Assembly (NCBI GenBank): GCA_963789135.1
Contig: CAWBJJ010000003.1
Location: forward strand, 162,507 to 226,506
Length of the DNA stretch: 64,000 nucleotides
Direction of reading: 5' to 3'
Source: an uncultured Acidobacteriota bacterium
GTDB taxonomy: Bacteria > Actinomycetota > Acidimicrobiia > Spongiisociales > ZC4RG35
The notes under the pieces were generated by a model, which did not search any database, was not told the origin of the DNA, and was given only the letters and a program-made list of their open reading frames with translations. Each line of letters starts with the position of its first letter. Position 1 is the first letter of the stretch. Positions 34,111 through 47,566 of the stretch are shown piece after piece. A program made the position numbers and the translations under genes.

Positions 34111-37100
34111 GTGGCTGAGCGCTTCTCATTCGGGAAAATTCCCGAAGTACTCCCCCTTCCTGACCTCCTCGCAGTTCAACACGAATCTTTCCAGTGGTTC
34201 CTCGACGAGGGGTTCCGCGAGATCTTCGAAGAGATAAGTCCCGATCGAGGATTTCACGGGCTCGCTCGCCCTGGAACTGACGGACCACCGCTTCGGCGAG
34301 CCCCAGATGAGCCTCGAAGAGGCCAAGGAGCGCGACTCCAACTACGCCCAGCCGCTGTTCGTCACCGCCCGGTTCATGAACCGGCAGACGGGTGAGATCA
34401 AGGAGCAGCAGGTCTTCCTCGGCGACTTCCCGATCATGACCGAGAAGGGCGTGTTCATCATCAACGGCACCGAGCGGGTCATCGTCTCCCAGCTGGTGCG
34501 CTCGCCCGGGATCTACTTCGACGAGACCCCGGACAAGACTTCGGACAAGCTCATCTACTCGGGGAAGATCATCCCGGGTCGTGGAGCATGGCTCGAGTTC
34601 GACACCGACAAGAAGGACACCATCGGTGTCCGCGTCGATCGCAAGCGTCGGCAGTACGTGACCGCATTCCTCAAGGCGCTGGGCATCGCCGAGACCGATG
34701 AGGAGATCCTCGCCATGTTCGATGGCGCCGAGTCGATCAGGAACACGATCGAGAAGGACACCGCCGCTGACAAAGAGGACGCCCTTCTCGACCTCTATCG
34801 GAAGCTGCGTCCCGGCGAGCCCACCACGGTGGAGTCGGCCAGGGGATTGATCCAGACCCTGTTCCGCAACCCGAAGCGCTACGACCTGACACGGGTCGGC
34901 CGCTACAAGATCAGCCAGAAGTACCGCGAGGAGTCACCGTCGGACTACCGCTCCGAGGGGCTGCAGTTGCTCCGTGACGAAGACATCGTCGACGCCATCA
35001 AGTACCTGGTCGCCCTCCACGCGGGCGAGTCGACGCTGATCACCCACAAGGGCAACGAGGTGAAGGTCCGCACCGACGACATCGACCATTTCGGCAACCG
35101 GCGGATCCGCACCGTCGGCGAGCTGGTCCAGAACCAGGTGCGCGTCGGCCTCACCCGCCTCGAGCGCGTCGTCCGGGAGCGGATGACCACTCAGGATCCC
35201 GATGCCATCACCCCGCAGAGCCTGATCAACATCAGGCCGGTAACGGCTGCGATCAAGGAGTTCTTCGGCACCAGCCAGCTGAGCCAGTTCATGGACCAGC
35301 CCAACCCGCTTGCCGGGCTCACCCATCGCCGGCGCCTGTCGGCGCTCGGCCCGGGCGGCCTCTCCCGTGAGCGAGCCGGGTTCGAAGTCCGTGACGTCCA
35401 CCCCTCCCACTACGGGCGGATGTGCCCCATCGAGACCCCGGAAGGGCCCAACATCGGCCTGATCGGCTCCCTCGCCTCATATGCGAGGGTCAATCAGTTC
35501 GGGTTCATCGAGACCCCTTACCGCAAGGTCATCAGTGGGAAGGTGACCGACAAGGTCGAGTATCTCACGGCCACTGAGGAGGAGCGCTACGTCATCGCCC
35601 AGGCCAATGCCCTTCTCAAAGACGACGGTGCGTTCAAGAACAATCGGGTTCTCGTCCGGCGCGCCGGGGGCGAGGTCGAGTACGTGCCGCCCTCGGAAGT
35701 CGACTACATGGACGTCTCGCCGAAGCAGATCGTTTCGGTGTCGACATCGCTGATCCCGTTCCTGGAGCACGACGACGCCAACCGGGCCCTCATGGGCTCC
35801 AACATGCAGCGCCAGGCCGTGCCCCTGCTCACCGCTGATGCGCCGCTGGTGGGTACCGGTGTCGAGCGCCGCGCCGCCCAGGACTCCGGGCGACATGATC
35901 GTCTCCCCCGTGGAGGGCGAGGTCGTCGAGGTCACCGGCGACGAGATCGTGGTCAAGGAGAAAGAGACCAACAAGAAGCACACCTTCCCCCTCGACAAGT
36001 TCAAGAGGTCGAACCAGGGCACTTGCATGAACCAAAAGCCACTGGTGAGGGAGGGCGACAAGGTCAAGGTCGGCGATGTCCTCGCCGACGGCCCGTCCAC
36101 CGAGGCCGGCGAGCTGGCACTGGGCCGAAACCTGCTGGTGGCGTTCATGCCCTGGCAGGGCCACAACTTCGAAGACGCCATCATCATCTCCGAGCGCCTG
36201 GTCAAGGACGACGTGCTCACCTCGATCCACATCGAGGAGCACGAGATCGACGCCCGTGACACCAAGCTCGGCGCCGAGGAGATCACCCGGGACATCCCCA
36301 ACGTCCCCGAGGAAGTCCTGGCCAACCTCGACGAAGAGGGCATCATCAGGGTCGGCGCCGAAGTCGGCCCCGGTGACTACCTGGTGGGCAAGGTCACCCC
36401 CAAGGGTGAGACCGAGCTCACGCCCGAGGAGCGCCTCCTTCGTGCCATCTTCGGCGAGAAGGCGCGCGAGGTGCGTGACACCTCCCTCAAGGTCCCCCAC
36501 GGCGAGACCGGCAAGGTGATCGCAGTCAAGGTGTTCAAGCGGGCCGAGGGTTACGACCTTCCACCCGGAGTCAACGAGCTGGTGCGGATCTACGTCGCCC
36601 AGCAGCGCAAGATCTCCGAGGGCGACAAGCTCGCCGGCCGTCACGGAAACAAGGGCGTCATCTCCAAGGTGCTCCCCGAGGAGGAGATGCCGTTCCTGGG
36701 CGACGGGACGCCGGTCGACATCATCCTCTCCCCGCTCGGAGTGCCTTCCCGGATGAACCTGGGCCAGGTGCTGGAGACCCATCTCGGATGGGCCGCCGCC
36801 CAGGGTTGGGAGCCGTACAAGGGCGAGAGCCCGGCGATCGTCGGCGCCAAGCCCTGGACCAAGGTCGCCACTCCGGTATTCGACGGCGCCCGCGAGGACG
36901 AGATCATGCAGGTGATCGGAAACGCGTTGCCCAATCGTGACGGCGAGCGCCTTGTGGCCGGAGACGGCAAGGCGATCCTCTACGACGGCCGTAACGGCGA
37001 GCCCTTCGACAACCCGATCACCGTCGGGTTCATCTACATGCTGAAGCTGGTCCACCTCGTCGACGAGAAGATCCACGCCCGGTCGACCGGCCCCTACAGC

Positions 37101-37472
37101 ATGATCACCCAGCAGCCGCTCGGTGGTAAGGCACAGTTCGGTGGCCAGCGCTTCGGAGAGATGGAAGTGTGGGCACTCGAGGCCTATGGCGCCGCCTACG
37201 CCCTCCAGGAGCTGCTGACCATCAAGTCGGACGACGTGCAGGGCCGGGTCAAGGTCTACGAGGCAATCGTCAAGGGAGACAACATCCCCGAGCCCGGCAT
37301 CCCGGAGTCGTTCCGGGTGCTGGTCAAGGAGATGCAGAGCCTCTGCCTCAACGTCGAGATGCTGGCCGCAGGCGAGGAAGTCGAGCTCCGCGAGCTCGAG
37401 GAGGAGAGCTACCGCTCGGTGGAGACCCTCGGAATCGACCTCAGCCGCCCGGAGCGCCCCGACTCGGAATGA
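34111..37472 (+). CDS. rpoB: DNA-directed RNA polymerase subunit beta; extra bases at CCC 34240-34242 and GGG 35888-35890
   Basis: [44 protein letters not shown] / [44 protein letters not shown]...[10 protein letters not shown] / [10 protein letters not shown]...[12 protein letters not shown]...[19 protein letters not shown] 34098, 6 nt after AGGAGG, may be the true start if there is a further indel. Confidence 0.95.
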
Positions 37473-37473
37473 C

Positions 37474-37500
37474 CGCAGAACGCAAAACGCAGAACGCAAA
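37474..37500 (+). repeat. tandem direct repeat CGCAGAACGCAAA x2 (period 14) in the rpoB-rpoC spacer
   Basis: CGCAGAACGCAAA-A-CGCAGAACGCAAA, read directly. The spacer is 65 nt and unusually A-rich for this genome. Confidence 0.8.
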
Positions 37501-37537
37501 TCGTCAGCAATCGCCACGGATCACGGAGAACTCATAG

Positions 37538-41468
<3,931 letters not shown>

Positions 41469-41735: not shown

Positions 41736-42497
41736 ATGGGGCTCGGTGCGCTGCTGATCATCGCCGGGCTAGCCGTAGTGGCGGCGTGGGCCACCGGTCT
41801 CAGCGACTACGAGACCACCGGGATCATCCTCAACACCGCACCCGCCTTCGCCTGCCCCGGGGACCCGCCACTCGGCGAGGTGTTCGAGGGAGAGAGTGTC
41901 GCCGTCATCGGGAAGCAAGGCTCTCAATGGCTGGTGATCAGGGACCAGCGATCGCCGGGCGACGCCTCATATGTCGAGGTGTCGATGGTGAGTGTCGAAG
42001 GTGATGCATCCCTGCTCGTGGAGCGGGACTGCGAGCCGGGCGGTGCGATCCCGGTGGCCGGCGAGGGGATCGACTCGACCGGCGGCGAAGCAGTGACCAC
42101 GCAGCCGGGCACGGTGGCCACCACGGTCGCACCGGGGGTCGAGACCACGATCGCGGGGACCACGGCCACGGCAGGTGGGGCCACCGGGAGCACCCGGCCC
42201 CGGTCAACCACCTCGACGACGCGGCCCAATTCGGTGACCACCACTCTGCCGTTCCCGGTGGCCCCACCGCCGAGCACCACGACGACCACCCGTCCCCCGT
42301 CGGGCACCACCACGACCACCCGGCCGCCGTCGACAACCAGCACCACCGCTGGCACCACTACCACGACAGCACCTACGACAACCACAGAGCCCCCGACAAC
42401 GACAACAGACCGACCACCACGACGACAACGACCACAGAGCCACCAACCACCACCACCGAGCCACCTACCACGACCACACCCTGAATCGGGTCGATAG
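41736..42497 (+). CDS. membrane-anchored protein with SH3b-like domain and Thr/Pro-rich repetitive tail (start and end unresolved)
   Basis: MGLGALLIIAGLAVVAAWATG (TM), GESVAVIGKQGSQWLVIRDQRSPGDASYVEVSMVS (SH3b-like), then TTTTTRPPSGTTTTTRPPS...TTTTEPP. The frame stays open and coding-like back to 41529 (..LSPNELAQQIANRLELSDDDAERWGWLPRFDLL..) with no in-frame start. A +1 shift near 42410 gives ..TTTTEPPTTTTEPPTTTTP-stop at 42484. Confidence 0.5.
   Translation: MGLGALLIIAGLAVVAAWATGLSDYETTGIILNTAPAFACPGDPPLGEVFEGESVAVIGKQGSQWLVIRDQRSPGDASYVEVSMVSVEGDASLLVERDCEPGGAIPVAGEGIDSTGGEAVTTQPGTVATTVAPGVETTIAGTTATAGGATGSTRPRSTTSTTRPNSVTTTLPFPVAPPPSTTTTTRPPSGTTTTTRPPSTTSTTAGTTTTTAPTTTTEPPTTTTDRPPRRQRPQSHQPPPPSHLPRPHPESGR
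42200..42484 (+). repeat. ACC/ACG/CCG-rich coding low-complexity repeats (Thr/Pro tract)
   Basis: Reiterated ACCACGACGACCACCCG... units that encode T(4-8)-[RE]-P-P motifs. Confidence 0.7.
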
Positions 42498-42753
42498 ACC
42501 CAGGCGGTGATGTCTCTTTGCGGTGCCGCGCCCCCATAGCATCGGTCCCCGGGAGGGACGACCAGGGCGGGCGCAGAAATCCGGGGGCCGGTGGGGGCTC
42601 CTTCGGCTCTGTCTCGCGCCCTGCTCCACCGTTCCGGGTAGGGAGTAGCGGGGGTTGTGAACCGGTCACGACCCCCGCAACCACAGCCCCGGTTGGCGTG
42701 GATTTCATCCGCTGTTACCGTTCTTTCTGCCCGACCGGAGCGATCCGGTCGAT

Positions 42754-43893: not shown

Positions 43894-46008
43894 ATGAGCA
43901 ACGGAAACGCTGCGCTGTCACAGCTGCGGCAGGTGCCGCTGAGCCGAACCCGGAACATCGGGATCATGGCTCACATCGACGCGGGCAAAACCACCCTCAC
44001 CGAGCGCATCCTCTACTACACCGGCCGCAACTACAAGATCGGTGAGGTCCATGAGGGCGCAGCCACCATGGACTGGATGGAGCAGGAGCAGGAGCGGGGC
44101 ATCACCATCACCTCCGCCGCCACCACCTGCATCTGGCACGAGCACCTGATCAACATCATCGACACCCCCGGGCATGTCGATTTCACCGTCGAGGTCGAGC
44201 GCTCGCTTCGCGTCCTCGACGGCGCGGTTGCAGTGTTCGACGGCGTTGCCGGTGTCGAGCCCCAGTCGGAGACCGTCTGGCGCCAGGCCGACCGCTACCA
44301 CGTCCCGCGGATCTGCTTCATCAACAAGCTGGACCGCACCGGTGCCGACTTCTATGCCGATGTCGACTCGATCGCCAATCGGCTCGGGGCCCACCCCCTG
44401 GTGATGCAGCTGCCGATCGGCACGGAGGCAGATTTCATCGGCGTCGTCGACCTCGTCGAGCAGAGAGCTCACGTGTGGAAGGGCGACGACGGCAAACAGT
44501 GGGACACGATCGAGATCCCAGCCGACCTCGTCGAGCGCGCCGCCAAGTACCGCGAGGCGCTGCTGGAGAAGGTCGCCGAGACCAGCGAGGAGCTGCTCGA
44601 GGCCTATCTGGACCATGGCGACCTGACGGTCGACCAGATCAAGACCGGCGTTCGCCTGGGCACCCTGAACGGGGACTTCAACCCGGTGTTCTGCGGCTCG
44701 GCCTTCAAGAACAAGGGCGTCCAGCTCCTCCTCGACGCAGTGGTGGACTATCTGCCCAGCCCGGCCGAGCTCCCTCCGATCAAGGGCTTCAAGCCGGGTG
44801 ACGAGGAGGTCGTCCTCGAGCGCAAGCTCGAAGACACCGAGCCTTTCTCCGCACTGGCCTTCAAGATCATGTCCGACCCTCACGTCGGCAAGCTGACCTA
44901 CTTCCGGGTCTACTCCGGCCACGCCTCCAAGGGCGATTCGGTGCTGAACACCACCACCGGGAAGAAGGAGCGGTTCGGGCGCATCCTGCGCATGCACGCC
45001 AACTCCCGTGAGGACGTCGACGAGGTGTTCGCCGGCGACATCGTGGCCGGAATCGGTCTCAAGAACACGACGACCGGTGACACCCTCTCCTCGGAGCGGG
45101 AGCCGATCCAGCTCGAGTCGATGGAATTCCCGGCCCCGGTGATCTCGGTTGCCATCGAGCCCAAGACCAAGTCCGACGACGAGAAGCTCTCCGAGTCGCT
45201 GCACCGACTCTCCGAGGAGGACCCCACCTTCCTGGTCCGGACCGACGAGGAGACCGGACAGACGATCATCTCCGGGATGGGCGAGCTCCACCTCGAGATC
45301 CTGGTGGACCGCCTGCTCCGCGAGTTCAAGGTCGAGGCCAACGTCGGCAAGCCCCAGGTCGCCTACCGGGAGACGATCCGGCGCGCCATCGACAAGGTCG
45401 AGTACCGCCACGTCAAGCAGACCGGTGGCAAGGGCCAATACGCCCACGTGGTCATCAACCTGGAGCCCACCGGGCCCGGCGGTGGCTACGAGTTCGTCGA
45501 TCAGATCCACGGTGGCCGGATCCCGCGGGAGTACATCCCGGCGGTCGACGACGGGATCGAGGATGCTCTCGACCAGGGAGTCCTCGCCGGTTATCCGCTG
45601 GTCGACGTGCGGGCGATCCTGATCGACGGCTCGTACCACGACGTCGACTCGTCGGAGATGGCGTTCAAGATCGCGGGGTCGATGGCCCTCCAGGAAGCGG
45701 CCCGCAAGGCCGGCGTCAAGCTCCTGGAGCCGGTCATGGAGATCGAGGTCACGACGCCCGAGGACTACATGGGCGACGTCATCGGCGACCTCAACAGCCG
45801 CCGGGGCAAGGTCGAGGGGATGACCCAGCGGGGCAACAGCCAGGTCATCCGGGCCCAGGTCCCGATGTCGGAGATGTTCGGCTACGCCACCGATCTGCGG
45901 TCCAAGACGCAGGGGCGAGCCACCTATTCCATGCAGTTCCATTCATATCAAGACGTTCCCGACTCGATCGCCGACGACATCGTCGCGACGCGCCGTGGCG
46001 CGGCCTGA
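43894..46008 (+). CDS. fusA: elongation factor G
   Basis: Intact 704 aa. [37 protein letters not shown]. Position after rpsG. Confidence 0.95.
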
Positions 46009-46055
46009 AGGTCGAAACAAGACGGATCTAGAGAAGAGATAGAGGAGCCAGGACG

Positions 46056-47248
46056 ATGGCGAAGGCGAAGTTTGAGCGTACGAAGCCGCATGTGAATGTG
46101 GGGACGATGGGTCATATTGATCATGGGAAGACGACGTTGACGGCGGCGATTACGCGGGTGTTGGCGGATCGGGTTGGTGGTTCGAATCAGTTGACGTCGT
46201 TTGATCAGATTGATAAGGCGCCGGAGGAGCGGGAGCGGGGGATCACGATTCAGATTGCTCATGTGGAGTATGAGACGGTGGCTCGTCATTACGCCCATGT
46301 GGATATGCCGGGTCATGCTGATTACATCAAGAACATGATTACGGGGGCGGCTCAGGTGGATGGGGCGATTCTGGTGGTGTCGGCGGCTGATGGTCCGATG
46401 CCTCAGACTCGGGAGCATGTGTTGTTGGCTCGTCAGGTGGGGGTGCCTTCGATTGTGGTGTTTTTGAACAAGGTGGACATGGTGGATGATCCTGAGCTTT
46501 TGGATTTGGTGGAGCTCGAGGTGCGGGATCTTGTTGACTGAGTATGAGTTTCCGGGGGATGAGGTTCCGGTGGTCCGGGGGAGCGCGTTGAAGGCGTTGG
46601 ATGGGGATGCGGAGGCTTCGGATCAGATCATGGAGTTGATGGATTCGGTTGATTCTTATGTGCCGGAGCCGGACCGGGATACGGATAAGCCGTTTCTGAT
46701 GTCGATCGAGGACGTGTTTTCGATCACCGGTCGGGGGACGGTGGTTACTGGCCGGGTGGAGCAGGGGATTTTGAAGGTGAATGAGGAGGTGGAGATTGTG
46801 GGGATCCGGCCTACTCATAAGACGGTGGCGACCGGGATCGAAATGTTCCGCAAGCTGTTGGATGAGGGCCGGGCCGGGGACAATGTCGGGGTTCTGTTGC
46901 GGGGGGTGGGTAAGGATGAGGTGGAGCGGGGTCAGGTCCTGGCCAAGCCGGGGATCGATTACTCCGCATACTGATTTCGAAGCTCAGGTCTATGTGCTGA
47001 CCAAGGAGGAGGGGGGCCGGCACAACCCGTTCTTCCCCGGGTATCGCCCCCAGTTCTACTTCCGGACTACTGATGTCACCGGGTCGATCCAACTGCCCGA
47101 GGGGACCCAGATGGTGATGCCGGGGGACAACACGGAGATGAACGTGGAACTGATCGCACCGATCGCCATGGACGAAGGACTCCGGTTCGCCATCCGAGAA
47201 GGCGGCCGCACCGTCGGCGCCGGCCGCGTAATCAAGATCCTCAAATGA
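46056..47248 (+). CDS. tuf: elongation factor Tu; two single extra bases (about 46531-46535 and G-run 46950-46953); atypical codon usage in the 5' two-thirds
   Basis: [32 protein letters not shown]...[41 protein letters not shown]...FLNKVDMV / [21 protein letters not shown]... / [27 protein letters not shown]...[17 protein letters not shown]. Confidence 0.9.
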
Positions 47249-47251
47249 CCC

Positions 47252-47566
47252 ATGGCAGATAACACACAGAAGATCCGGATCCGACTCAAGGCTTACGACC
47301 ACAACGTGGTCGACGAGTCTTCGAAGAAGATCACCGAGACCGTGCTGCGGACCCAGGCCAAGATCAAGGGCCCGATCCCGCTTCCCACGGAGATCCATCG
47401 CTATTGCGTGATCCGGGGCCCGCACGTCGACAAGGACTCGCGTGAGCACTTCGAGATGCGGATCCACAAGCGCCTCATCGACATCCTCGAGCCGACCCCG
47501 AAGACGGTCGACTCGCTGATGCGCCTCGAGCTGCCCGCCGGCGTCGAAGTGGAGATCAAGCTATGA
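47252..47566 (+). CDS. rpsJ: 30S ribosomal protein S10
   Basis: [47 protein letters not shown].... Starts 3 nt after the tuf stop. Confidence 0.95.

Follow-up and report, generated by a model that had tools for sequence, protein, structure and literature searches.

EF-Tu is the most abundant bacterial protein, and its gene, tuf, is the textbook case of codon usage under translational selection. Both the concerted evolution of tuf genes and strand asymmetries of base composition are already known. To our knowledge, the tuf genes of enterobacteria have the ordinary codon usage of highly expressed genes, and no strand-specific compositional drive has been reported in them. Here we analyse a 64,000-nucleotide stretch of contig CAWBJJ010000003.1 (the window), from an uncultured member of the Acidimicrobiia, in which the tuf gene of the str operon is strongly depleted of C-ending codons. 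The closest described system is the tufA/tufB pair of Salmonella and E. coli, in which one copy follows fusA in the str operon and the other follows tRNA genes upstream of secE-nusG, the two paralogues of one genome resemble each other far more than orthologues of different species do, and homology stops at the gene ends (PMC5485169). The genes studied here share these features, but the copies in this clade have lost nearly all of their C-ending codons and, judging from phylum membership, their heteroduplexes are likely policed by NucS.

Other known processes resemble this locus in part. GC-biased gene conversion (gBGC) is a non-adaptive, recombination-linked drive that can prevail over codon selection, alter proteins and stay confined to recombining tracts. 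It favours G and C and is strand-symmetric, whereas here C is eliminated and G+T rise on one strand. We know of no described conversion drive that is both biased towards keto bases (G and T) and strand-asymmetric, and literature searches returned no description of one. Asymmetries associated with transcription or replication share the excess of G+T over A+C on the exposed strand, the dominance of C>T and A>G changes and a positional gradient, but the known effects are mild and regional, whereas this one is near-total (fraction of codons ending in C, C3, of 0.00-0.10), restricted to one open reading frame (ORF), and spares the neighbours. ACA-less, MazF-resistant messages and rut-free, Rho-resistant transcripts are likewise depleted of a nuclease or terminator target, as is the tuf message described here, from which all windows with more C than G are gone. 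Those cases involve short motifs or are engineered, whereas this is a natural ORF of 900-1190 nt, with loss of A and change of protein, known from sequence alone. Full-text literature searches found no prior description of a tuf-specific skew, which is not proof of absence, and the gene-specific, near-total keto enrichment of both tuf paralogues is apparently undescribed.

The gene in the window consists of the following parts.
46056..47248, plus strand: tuf, the str-operon (A) copy encoding EF-Tu, 1193 nt as assembled and 1191 nt without two inserted bases (three-frame translation).
46056..46950, plus strand: the C-depleted block of G- or T-ending codons, codons 1 to about 298, with C3 0.00-0.20, a fraction of A-ending codons (A3) of about 0 and GC skew +0.3 to +0.46.
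46951..47248, plus strand: the 3' tail, in which C-ending codons return (C3 0.38, then 0.49); it includes a protein-imposed C-rich zone at gene nt ~960-1040, with an 80-nt C/G peak of 1.94.

Third positions of codons 1-159 (46056-46532) are C in 9 cases, G in 95, T in 55 and A in none. At the C3 of the adjacent fusA (0.544), about 86 of these codons would be expected to end in C (binomial P = 4e-40). Within this segment His is encoded by CAT 8 times and never by CAC, Asp by GAT 12 times and GAC once, Ile by ATT 8 times and ATC twice, Phe by TTT 3 times and never by TTC, and Thr by ACG 10 times and never by ACC; 8 of the 12 Leu codons are TTG. The block had been noticed in an earlier note, made by reading the sequence, and its counts are all reproduced: the 9 of 159 C-ending codons, 32 of the first 60 in fusA, the codon choices, and the 50 C in the first 290 nt of tuf, where we count 107 G for what had been given as roughly double. 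Its figure of about 39 C-ending codons among the last 83 or so of tuf becomes 40 of 83 on recounting.

A 200-nt sliding-window profile, of the kind that the note proposed, gives a GC skew of +0.31 to +0.46 and a GC content of about 0.56 across 46000-46950, with skew near 0 and GC about 0.65 on both sides. Among the long frames of the window, tuf third positions are essentially G or T (C3 0.07, A3 0.02, third-position GC skew +0.80), and the genuine genes range from about -0.3 to +0.1 in third-position skew, none of them near the tuf value. At the four-fold degenerate sites of this tuf, G makes up 70% and T 22%. The return to C-ending codons is gradual, as had been claimed: in successive sets of 50 codons C3 is 0.00, 0.12, 0.04, 0.08, 0.14, 0.20, 0.38 and 0.49. 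The near absence of A at third positions also holds for normal tuf genes of high GC content and is not peculiar to the block.

The block is overlapped by two antisense ORFs, both already reported and both confirmed.
45948..46418, minus strand: stop-free ORF, a by-product of sense third positions that are only G or T.
46339..46818, minus strand: stop-free ORF of the same cause.
Frame arithmetic places both in the frame whose first codon position pairs with the third position of the sense codon. Since sense third positions are G or T only, no antisense codon begins with T, and therefore no antisense stop arises. The second ORF lies in a different frame from the first only because of the first of the two inserted bases in tuf (see below). 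We rejected an antisense protein-coding gene: the ORFs are an arithmetic consequence of the G/T third positions, and avoidance of A there is alone sufficient.

Such a block is what tuf normally looks like in this clade of Acidimicrobiia; it is neither an import nor a mis-join. The DNA of relatives was a broad sample of the matches listed. The closest named EF-Tu and EF-G proteins are from Acidimicrobiia, mostly metagenome-assembled, and the nearest relatives are on long contigs of ENA assemblies. C depletion is present in all 14 tuf genes obtained from the window's clade (L001-L008, L086-L090). In those profiled, C3 over codons 1-300 is 0.00-0.15, A3 is near 0 and the GC skew lies between +0.34 and +0.59, while the flanks are near 0 in skew; for L086-L088 the depletion is read from near-identity to their own second copies and from a skew scan. 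No fewer than nine further assemblies, one of them a complete chromosome, thus show the depletion, which occurs in two genomic contexts, and no tuf with normal codon usage was found in any examined clade member. The clade EF-Tu proteins are monophyletic within Acidimicrobiia in the protein tree.

Horizontal transfer of a foreign tuf segment, or a chimeric assembly that joined the 5' tuf of another organism to this one, is what a composition sharply unlike that of the flanks would first bring to mind. The source is probably a metagenome assembly with consensus errors, tuf is conserved enough for mis-joining, and the window tuf is a fine-scale mosaic relative to L001 and L002. Nevertheless, the same block, gradient and boundaries recur throughout the clade, as do the genomic contexts just described. 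The 3' fade of the window is shared by its relatives L001-L003, to which the window tuf is 92.8-93.8% identical along the whole gene, the C-normal tail included (0.92-0.97 in the last 200 nt), and the nearest relatives of block, tail and fusA alike come from one set of assemblies. We therefore regard either form of foreign origin as very improbable. The foreign allele offered by the earlier note fails because the 5' block and the 3' tail share nearest relatives, which carry the same block and fade; its alternative of a real but native peculiarity, which it tied to common nearest relatives of the two halves, is the one that the comparison bears out. A chimeric consensus, also among its suggestions, does not account for the codon block, but the mixing of alleles is the best explanation of two frameshifts that the note had missed. 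Its third suggestion, a local strand-specific process, comes closest, yet the process is clade-wide, long maintained and specific to tuf.

Clade genomes carry two tuf genes. Copy A, that of the window, lies in the context rpsL-rpsG-fusA-tuf-rpsJ, and copy B in the context tRNA-Tyr/Thr/Met-tuf-rpmG-...-tRNA-Trp-secE-nusG. In five relatives both are on one contig, co-oriented and 57-119 kb apart (A/B pairs L004/L005, L090/L089, L086/L001, L087/L002 and L088/L003). The copies of a pair differ by 3 substitutions in L004/L005 (99.7% identity including the stop codon), by 6 nt in L090/L089, by about 9-10 nt in L086/L001 and L087/L002 and by about 30 in L088/L003 (per 1191 nt), while tuf identity between species-level assemblies is 86-94%. 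These comparisons show that the tuf copies are under concerted evolution by gene conversion of the tufA/tufB type. The tract available for it in the window is the following.
46042..47244, plus strand: tract homologous to the B copies and open to conversion between paralogues; in blastn of L001-L003 against the window, the only match (from 46042/46043, 92.8-93.8% identity).
Homology with the B copies reaches 13-14 nt upstream of the ATG on one side and the stop codon on the other, and beyond it the flanks diverge within about 20-30 nt. Because homology extends only from the ribosome-binding site to the stop codon, the anomaly begins abruptly at its 5' end within a native operon. In Salmonella, too, conversion between the tuf paralogues stays within the gene; its initiation is uniform, and it proceeds in both directions (PMC5485169).

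The window's own contig probably holds a second, intact tuf outside the 64 kb. The fusA product of the window (P0121) and an intact EF-Tu (P0001), the latter credited to public sources and not to the window, are both recorded on 296,036-nt contigs. No tRNA gene was found in the 64-kb window with ARAGORN, so the tRNA-tuf-rpmG-secE-nusG locus would lie elsewhere on the 296-kb contig. The search for a second tuf that the earlier note recommended thus yields two loci in five relatives and, for the genome of the window itself, a copy deduced from these two protein records. The idea of a paralogous allele or of conversion is borne out in that a second tuf exists and the copies are homogenised. It fails as a cause, since the paralogue is equally biased: with both copies biased, conversion moves the pattern but does not explain it.

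The 5' end of tuf is the most uniform part. Over its first ~100 nt, species whose tuf genes otherwise diverge by 6-14% share 99-100% nucleotide identity (L001-L005, L086-L090, window 46056-46260), and of the roughly 57 differences between A and B copies in five genomes none falls within nt 1-209. This suggests extra constraint on the 5' end or its more frequent homogenisation.

The anomaly is confined to tuf, and its immediate neighbours have native composition, as the earlier note held.
43894..46008, plus strand: fusA (EF-G), intact, native composition, C3 0.54.
47252..47566, plus strand: rpsJ (S10), beginning 3 nt past the tuf stop, native, C3 0.47.
The fusA, rpsL, rpsG, rpsJ and S10-operon genes of the window all have ordinary composition. 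In the extreme lineage both tuf genes have C3 0.01, against 0.46 for groEL, 0.35 for fusA, 0.35 for nusG and 0.30-0.43 for ten ribosomal protein genes. Genes of the clade that start 0-16 nt after tuf, and must therefore share its transcript, are unaffected. A scan of all clade loci revealed no other strongly positive-skew segment. Promoter- or terminator-like sites were not found around tuf, and an Rfam scan (E<=1) of 41-49 kb gave two sub-threshold chance hits only.

The window does contain one other strongly skewed segment, 42151-42550, of opposite sign (GC skew -0.41, from 180 C, 95 G, 91 A and 34 T). It encodes the low-complexity tail, rich in Thr, Pro and Ser, of a hypothetical protein (41736-42497) that has an N-terminal hydrophobic segment and whose gene lies between rpoC and rpsL; both the gene and its skew are also present in L004 and L086-L088. 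This skew is an effect of amino-acid composition and is unrelated to tuf.

The direction of change in tuf is towards keto bases on the sense strand, at the cost of C and, for the extreme lineage, of A as well, at all sites where the protein can bear it. Third-position C is avoided as far as the genetic code permits. In two-fold families NNC is replaced by NNT, and in four-fold families NNG or NNT is used, with a G:T ratio that varies by lineage (about 3:1 in the window, about 1.2:1 in L004). Leu CTG and CTC become TTG, while Arg remains CGK and Ser remains TCK. At codon positions 1 and 2, with the majority base among 12 Acidimicrobiia without depletion as reference, the window has 22 changes from A or C to G or T and 2 in reverse, and L008 has 55 and 1; in controls the ratio is about 5:5. 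At these positions C>T accounts for 14-22 and A>G for 4-19 changes in the window, L004, L007 and L008, and reverse changes are almost nil. L008, in which C>T (22) and A>G (19) lead, loses A (-34/+4) as much as C (-31/+7), and its protein has become richer in Val, Gly and Arg and poorer in Ile, Thr and Lys. Given this equal loss of A and C in L008, the force is an enrichment of keto bases (G+T) on the sense strand, more than an avoidance of C. In the extreme sub-clade to which L008 belongs, with L089 and L090, 0-3 of 397 codons end in C and G+T reaches 74%. The tuf of this sub-clade starts (at 3501 in L008, L089 and L090) with GTG (GTGGGTAAGGTG...), preceded by GGGGGTTTTGGTT, so that start codon and leader are also G/T-rich.

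The G/T state of tuf is old and maintained, and its sites go on changing, in most comparisons mainly between G and T. Within the block, G<->T is the commonest synonymous third-position difference in four of six comparisons: against L004 and L006-L008 there are 28-44 such differences and 16-17 of the C<->T type, and against the closest relatives, L001 and L002, the two are roughly equal. In the last 96 codons C<->T dominates. The C-ending sites that remain are not scattered at random: 25 are shared by at least three of seven lineages, against 4.1 expected (permutation, maximum 11), and they mostly precede a codon starting with A, where T would make TA-rich runs.

Three families of explanation remain for the cause of the bias, and they are not mutually exclusive; a drive could set the bulk of the composition, and selection could account for the retained C sites and the 3' element. 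Taken as a whole, a native, clade-wide block in two converting copies, with a conversion drive as its proposed cause, is the explanation that we hold with moderate confidence. As to the cause taken singly, a conversion-linked, strand-biased drive is our tentative choice, preferred to selection on the mRNA, which we consider a possible but rather doubtful cause. Actinobacteria have NucS/EndoMS in place of MutS/L. We propose that a strand-biased filter would act on gene conversion between copies A and B, NucS rejecting incoming strands that form G-G, G-T or T-T mismatches and letting others pass. The antisense strand would usually be the one exchanged, as expected for annealing or template switching on the lagging-strand template if the gene is co-oriented with replication. 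An A or C newly arisen on the sense strand of one copy would then never be copied across, but could be overwritten, and a new sense-strand G or T would be free to spread between copies. Repetition would ratchet both copies towards G/T at weakly constrained sites, within the homologous tract only and whatever the codon preference. In M. smegmatis, NucS rejects G-G, G-T and T-T, and these only, by more than 500-fold in vivo (PMC11551767).

Duplication with conversion is the structural feature that sets tuf apart from its neighbours, and a conversion-linked drive is therefore preferred. Such a drive accounts for the confinement to the tract, the all-or-none contrast with other genes, the override of codon selection (GGG, CGG and NNT, which are translationally poor, replace NNC in the most expressed gene of the cell), the loss of A and the free exchange of G and T. 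The two copies, the conversion between them and the direction of change are matters of observation. That keto-biased, strand-asymmetric conversion arises from the mismatch specificity of NucS/EndoMS, as a new molecular drive overriding translational codon selection in tuf, is a more specific proposal that we put forward as a speculation.

Several observations weigh against the conversion drive. The presence of NucS and its action on tuf heteroduplexes in this clade, the identity of the exchanged strand and the reason why only the 3' end relaxes are points that we infer. Bidirectional, uniform tracts as in Salmonella predict a weakening of the bias at both ends, whereas here it weakens at the 3' end only, and codons 1-50 have C3 0.00. 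The 3' relaxation anticorrelates with a long, A/C-rich spacer after tuf, which has the look of a function at the RNA level and is not predicted by a drive. The retained C sites, shared and placed before A-starting codons (the 25 against 4.1 above), indicate that selection on sequence context is also at work. Weaker, patchy cases of depletion elsewhere in Acidimicrobiia (L014, L017, L022, L029, L033, L063, L074) lie outside the set checked for copy number, and one non-depleted clade has both A- and B-type loci (L011 and L085 vs L012 and L013), so that two copies alone may not be sufficient for the bias. Finally, a milder excess of G- over C-ending codons occurs in tuf of some Acidobacteriota and Rokubacteria, which are assumed to use MutS/L rather than NucS.

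The spacer observation is one of those that speak for selection on the tuf mRNA. Depletion extends to the stop codon only where a spacer of at least 90 nt follows tuf (L007, L008, L089 and L090, with C3 0.04-0.19 in the last 47 codons), and where the next gene abuts (0-16 nt) the last ~50 tuf codons are C-rich (0.26-0.55). In all tuf genes a zone at nt ~960-1040 is rich in C and poor in G because of the amino acids encoded there. The spacers of L089 (4692-4797), L090 (4692-4784) and L008 (4692-4789) are A/C-rich, with A 0.43-0.47 and C 0.19-0.27, and that of L007 is not (G 0.36, C 0.27, A 0.23). In L089 and L090 the spacer opens with an almost pure C/A tract (CCCCAACAAACCAAAACAAAAA), common to A and B copies. 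Possible roles of the A/C-rich tract are the loading of Rho, cleavage by RNase E and the enhancement of translation. Comparison of about two against three independent lineages suggests a need for some C-rich element where the tuf unit ends.

Rho prefers RNA that is rich in C and poor in G. Selection on the message would hold that C-poor, G-rich tuf mRNA escapes Rho loading, offers fewer targets to RNase E or folds less stably, and that C-rich sequence is retained solely where the unit ends and termination or processing serves a purpose. The first 900 nt contain no 80-nt window in which C exceeds G, compared with 41-63% of windows in normal tuf genes and neighbours, and predicted folding is about 15-20% weaker (-37 vs -44 kcal/mol per 120 nt). 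The near-invariance of the first ~100-200 nt across species and the shared, context-dependent C-ending sites are in keeping with this reading, and the RNase E of mycobacteria cuts directly 5' of cytidines and prefers C-rich regions (PMC10641625). Against it, there is no gradation with expression: groEL, fusA, nusG and ribosomal genes are unaffected in the same genomes in which tuf goes down to 2-3 C-ending codons in 397. About 100-150 C are left at codon positions 1 and 2, so that each of the last third-position C residues amounts to less than 1% of the C content and a purity of 99% is hard to reach by selection. The RN|CNU motif falls merely from about 29 to 22. The non-synonymous sites of L008 have lost as much adenine as cytosine, an outcome not expected from avoidance of C, and selection on the mRNA would demand both forgoing the preferred NNC codons and altering a highly conserved protein.

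Some narrower candidates were considered separately. A motif scan found no G-quadruplex in any tuf, and this explanation was rejected. An unstructured mRNA as sole cause was judged weak on the size of the change in folding energy, as was evasion of RNase E on the motif counts just given. Selection by tRNAs or translation was also rejected: NNC and NNT are decoded by the same GNN tRNAs, a switch from C to T gains nothing, and GGG and CGG are poor codons. Ordinary gBGC does not fit either, since third-position C falls from about 0.55 to 0.00-0.10, T climbs to 0.3-0.4 and the GC content of the gene goes down to 0.54-0.58.

A third family invokes deamination of the sense (non-template) strand, which in so heavily transcribed a gene would often be single-stranded, exposed by transcription or in R-loops. 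Deaminated C becomes U and is read as T, and deaminated A becomes hypoxanthine and is read as G. R-loops would be stabilised by G-rich RNA, so that the process would be self-reinforcing and strongest at the 5' end, and conversion would spread the result to the other copy. Gradients with exposure time are known from mitochondrial DNA and the 5' ends of mammalian genes, and the 5'-to-3' gradient of tuf resembles them. The leading changes of the extreme lineage (C>T 22, A>G 19) are the two sense-strand deamination transitions, and the replacement of Leu CTG/CTC by TTG through C>T, with Arg CGK and Ser TCK kept, points to a transition bias and not to a general avoidance of C. Yet the bias ends inside tuf, and rpsJ or rpmG, 0-16 nt on, with no terminator-like site between and with the same polymerase traffic, are normal, as is fusA directly upstream in the operon. 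Other very highly transcribed genes are unaffected as well, and the 70% G and 22% T at four-fold sites, with frequent G<->T transversions, go beyond the outcome of pure C>T change. Judged by what a transcription-associated asymmetry should show, the excess of C>T and A>G is present, and neither extension over the whole unit nor scaling with expression is found. We consider deamination an improbable cause.

Although the composition of the window tuf is native, its reading frame is not intact as assembled. The earlier note stated that the EF-Tu protein reads normally. Instead, the 1193 nt contain two 1-nt insertions that break the gene into three overlapping ORFs (46056-46541, 46486-46974 and 46781-47248).
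46529..46533, plus strand: insertion no. 1, 1 nt, GGGA[T]CTTG or CTT[G]TTG, codons 158-160 (allele comparison with intact relatives).
46950..46954, plus strand: insertion no. 2, 1 nt, CCGGGG[A]TCGATT, codon 300 (allele comparison).
The corrected protein has 396 aa and is 100% identical to P0001 (PF00009 GTP_EFTU, PF03144 EFTU_D2, PF03143 EFTU_D3). Its three domains and the position of the gene after fusA, in the order rpsL-rpsG-fusA-tuf-rpsJ by synteny with L004, identify it as EF-Tu; an uninterrupted frame is lacking in this assembly.

Other genes are affected too. Both rpoB, in two frames, and rpoC, in at least three to four segments, are frame-broken (34238-41468), and the intragenic differences from L004 that break a frame are all +1 insertions in the window (rpoC 39560, 39697 and 40029; two in tuf; ribosomal protein genes 49636 and 51119). 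This assembly thus appears to have systematic single-base insertion errors. In tuf the codon 158 insertion recurs in L086, L087 is also broken at codon 300 (as GGT-AGCG), and L088 is broken at codons 133 and 161; in L086, L087 and L088 it is always the fusA-linked copy. Intact relatives have GAC-TTG-TTG, GAT-TTG-TTG, GAT-CTT-TTG or GAT-CTG-TTG at codons 158-160 and Ser TCG or AGC at codon 133, and the broken sequences read as the union of two synonymous alleles (GAT+C, TCG+C, A+TCG, AGC+G), where the AGC allele at codon 300 is deduced, being absent from the intact copies compared. On this view the breaks of the window and L087 at codon 300 both resemble merged alternative codons for Ser. The tuf frameshifts are most likely consensus errors that merged reads of two synonymous alleles, from paralogues or co-assembled strains. 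Random sequencing error was rejected for these breaks, since positions recur between assemblies. Programmed +1 frameshifting at both was also rejected: there is no slippery or stop context, and the peptide would depart from conserved EF-Tu residues. Both inserted bases yield a GATC (46527-46532, GGGA[T]C; 46951-46956, GGGG[A]TC) that is missing there in intact B copies, which could be coincidence or motif-dependent basecalling.

What weighs against an artefact is that the break lies in the A copy in all four assemblies where tuf is broken, that B, where seen, is intact, and that positions recur. A real pseudogene in the str operon, with B supplying EF-Tu and patchy conversion from B keeping A looking intact, would explain why A is frame-broken in the window, L086, L087 and L088 with B intact on the same contigs, and why breaks recur at codon 158 (window, L086) and codon 300 (window, L087). 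However, rpoB and rpoC, single-copy and essential, are broken in the same assemblies, each tuf break is a +1 change readable as two synonymous alleles that are intact elsewhere, and the closely related L087 and L088 are broken at different sites. Copy A is intact in L004, L006, L008 and L090, the corrected protein matches the intact one completely, and B copies were found via full-length protein hits, so that their intactness is partly an effect of ascertainment. We consider a pseudogene unlikely, and retain the merging of alleles as the most probable explanation of the breaks.

Beyond the clade, and among the matches listed, a weaker tuf-specific depletion is seen in Iamiaceae, Microthrixaceae, Ilumatobacteraceae and other Acidimicrobiales (C3 0.13-0.31, skew +0.17 to +0.32). 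These cases, whose flanks are near 0 in skew, are scattered in the tree among relatives without depletion (C3 0.45-0.60), and tuf is normal in Streptomyces, Nocardioides and similar genera. In L045, L046 and L059 (Acidobacteriota), L068 (Rokubacteria), L044 (Nitrospiraceae) and L054 (Aquificota), tuf has C3 0.11-0.25, a G-ending fraction of 0.47-0.69 and GC skew +0.28 to +0.45, above that of the flanking ribosomal genes in L045, L046, L059 and L068; the T-ending fraction is not raised. These are possibly milder, related tuf-specific skews in other phyla. One contig labelled 'uncultured Burkholderiales' (L017, CAZJSY010000011.1) encodes an EF-Tu 81% identical to that of the window, which groups with Actinomycetota and has an actinobacterial tRNA-tuf-rpmG context. 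This contig is probably mis-binned or mislabelled.

The use of tuf as a phylogenetic or barcoding marker is affected by these findings, as a compositional drive, concerted evolution and amino-acid change can mislead trees and detectors of horizontal gene transfer, and near-identical tuf paralogues lead to frame-breaking consensus errors in long-read metagenome assemblies. In a lineage of 63-65% GC, tuf drops the preferred C-ending codons almost wholly, while neighbouring highly expressed genes keep them. If a NucS-dependent drive is the cause, this would be the first strand-asymmetric biased gene conversion and an evolutionary footprint of non-canonical mismatch repair; if selection on the mRNA is the cause, the clade would offer a natural experiment on how Rho and RNase E shape coding sequence in Actinobacteria. 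Whichever cause applies, the force prevails over translational selection in the gene where such selection should be strongest, and in one sub-clade it has altered the protein.

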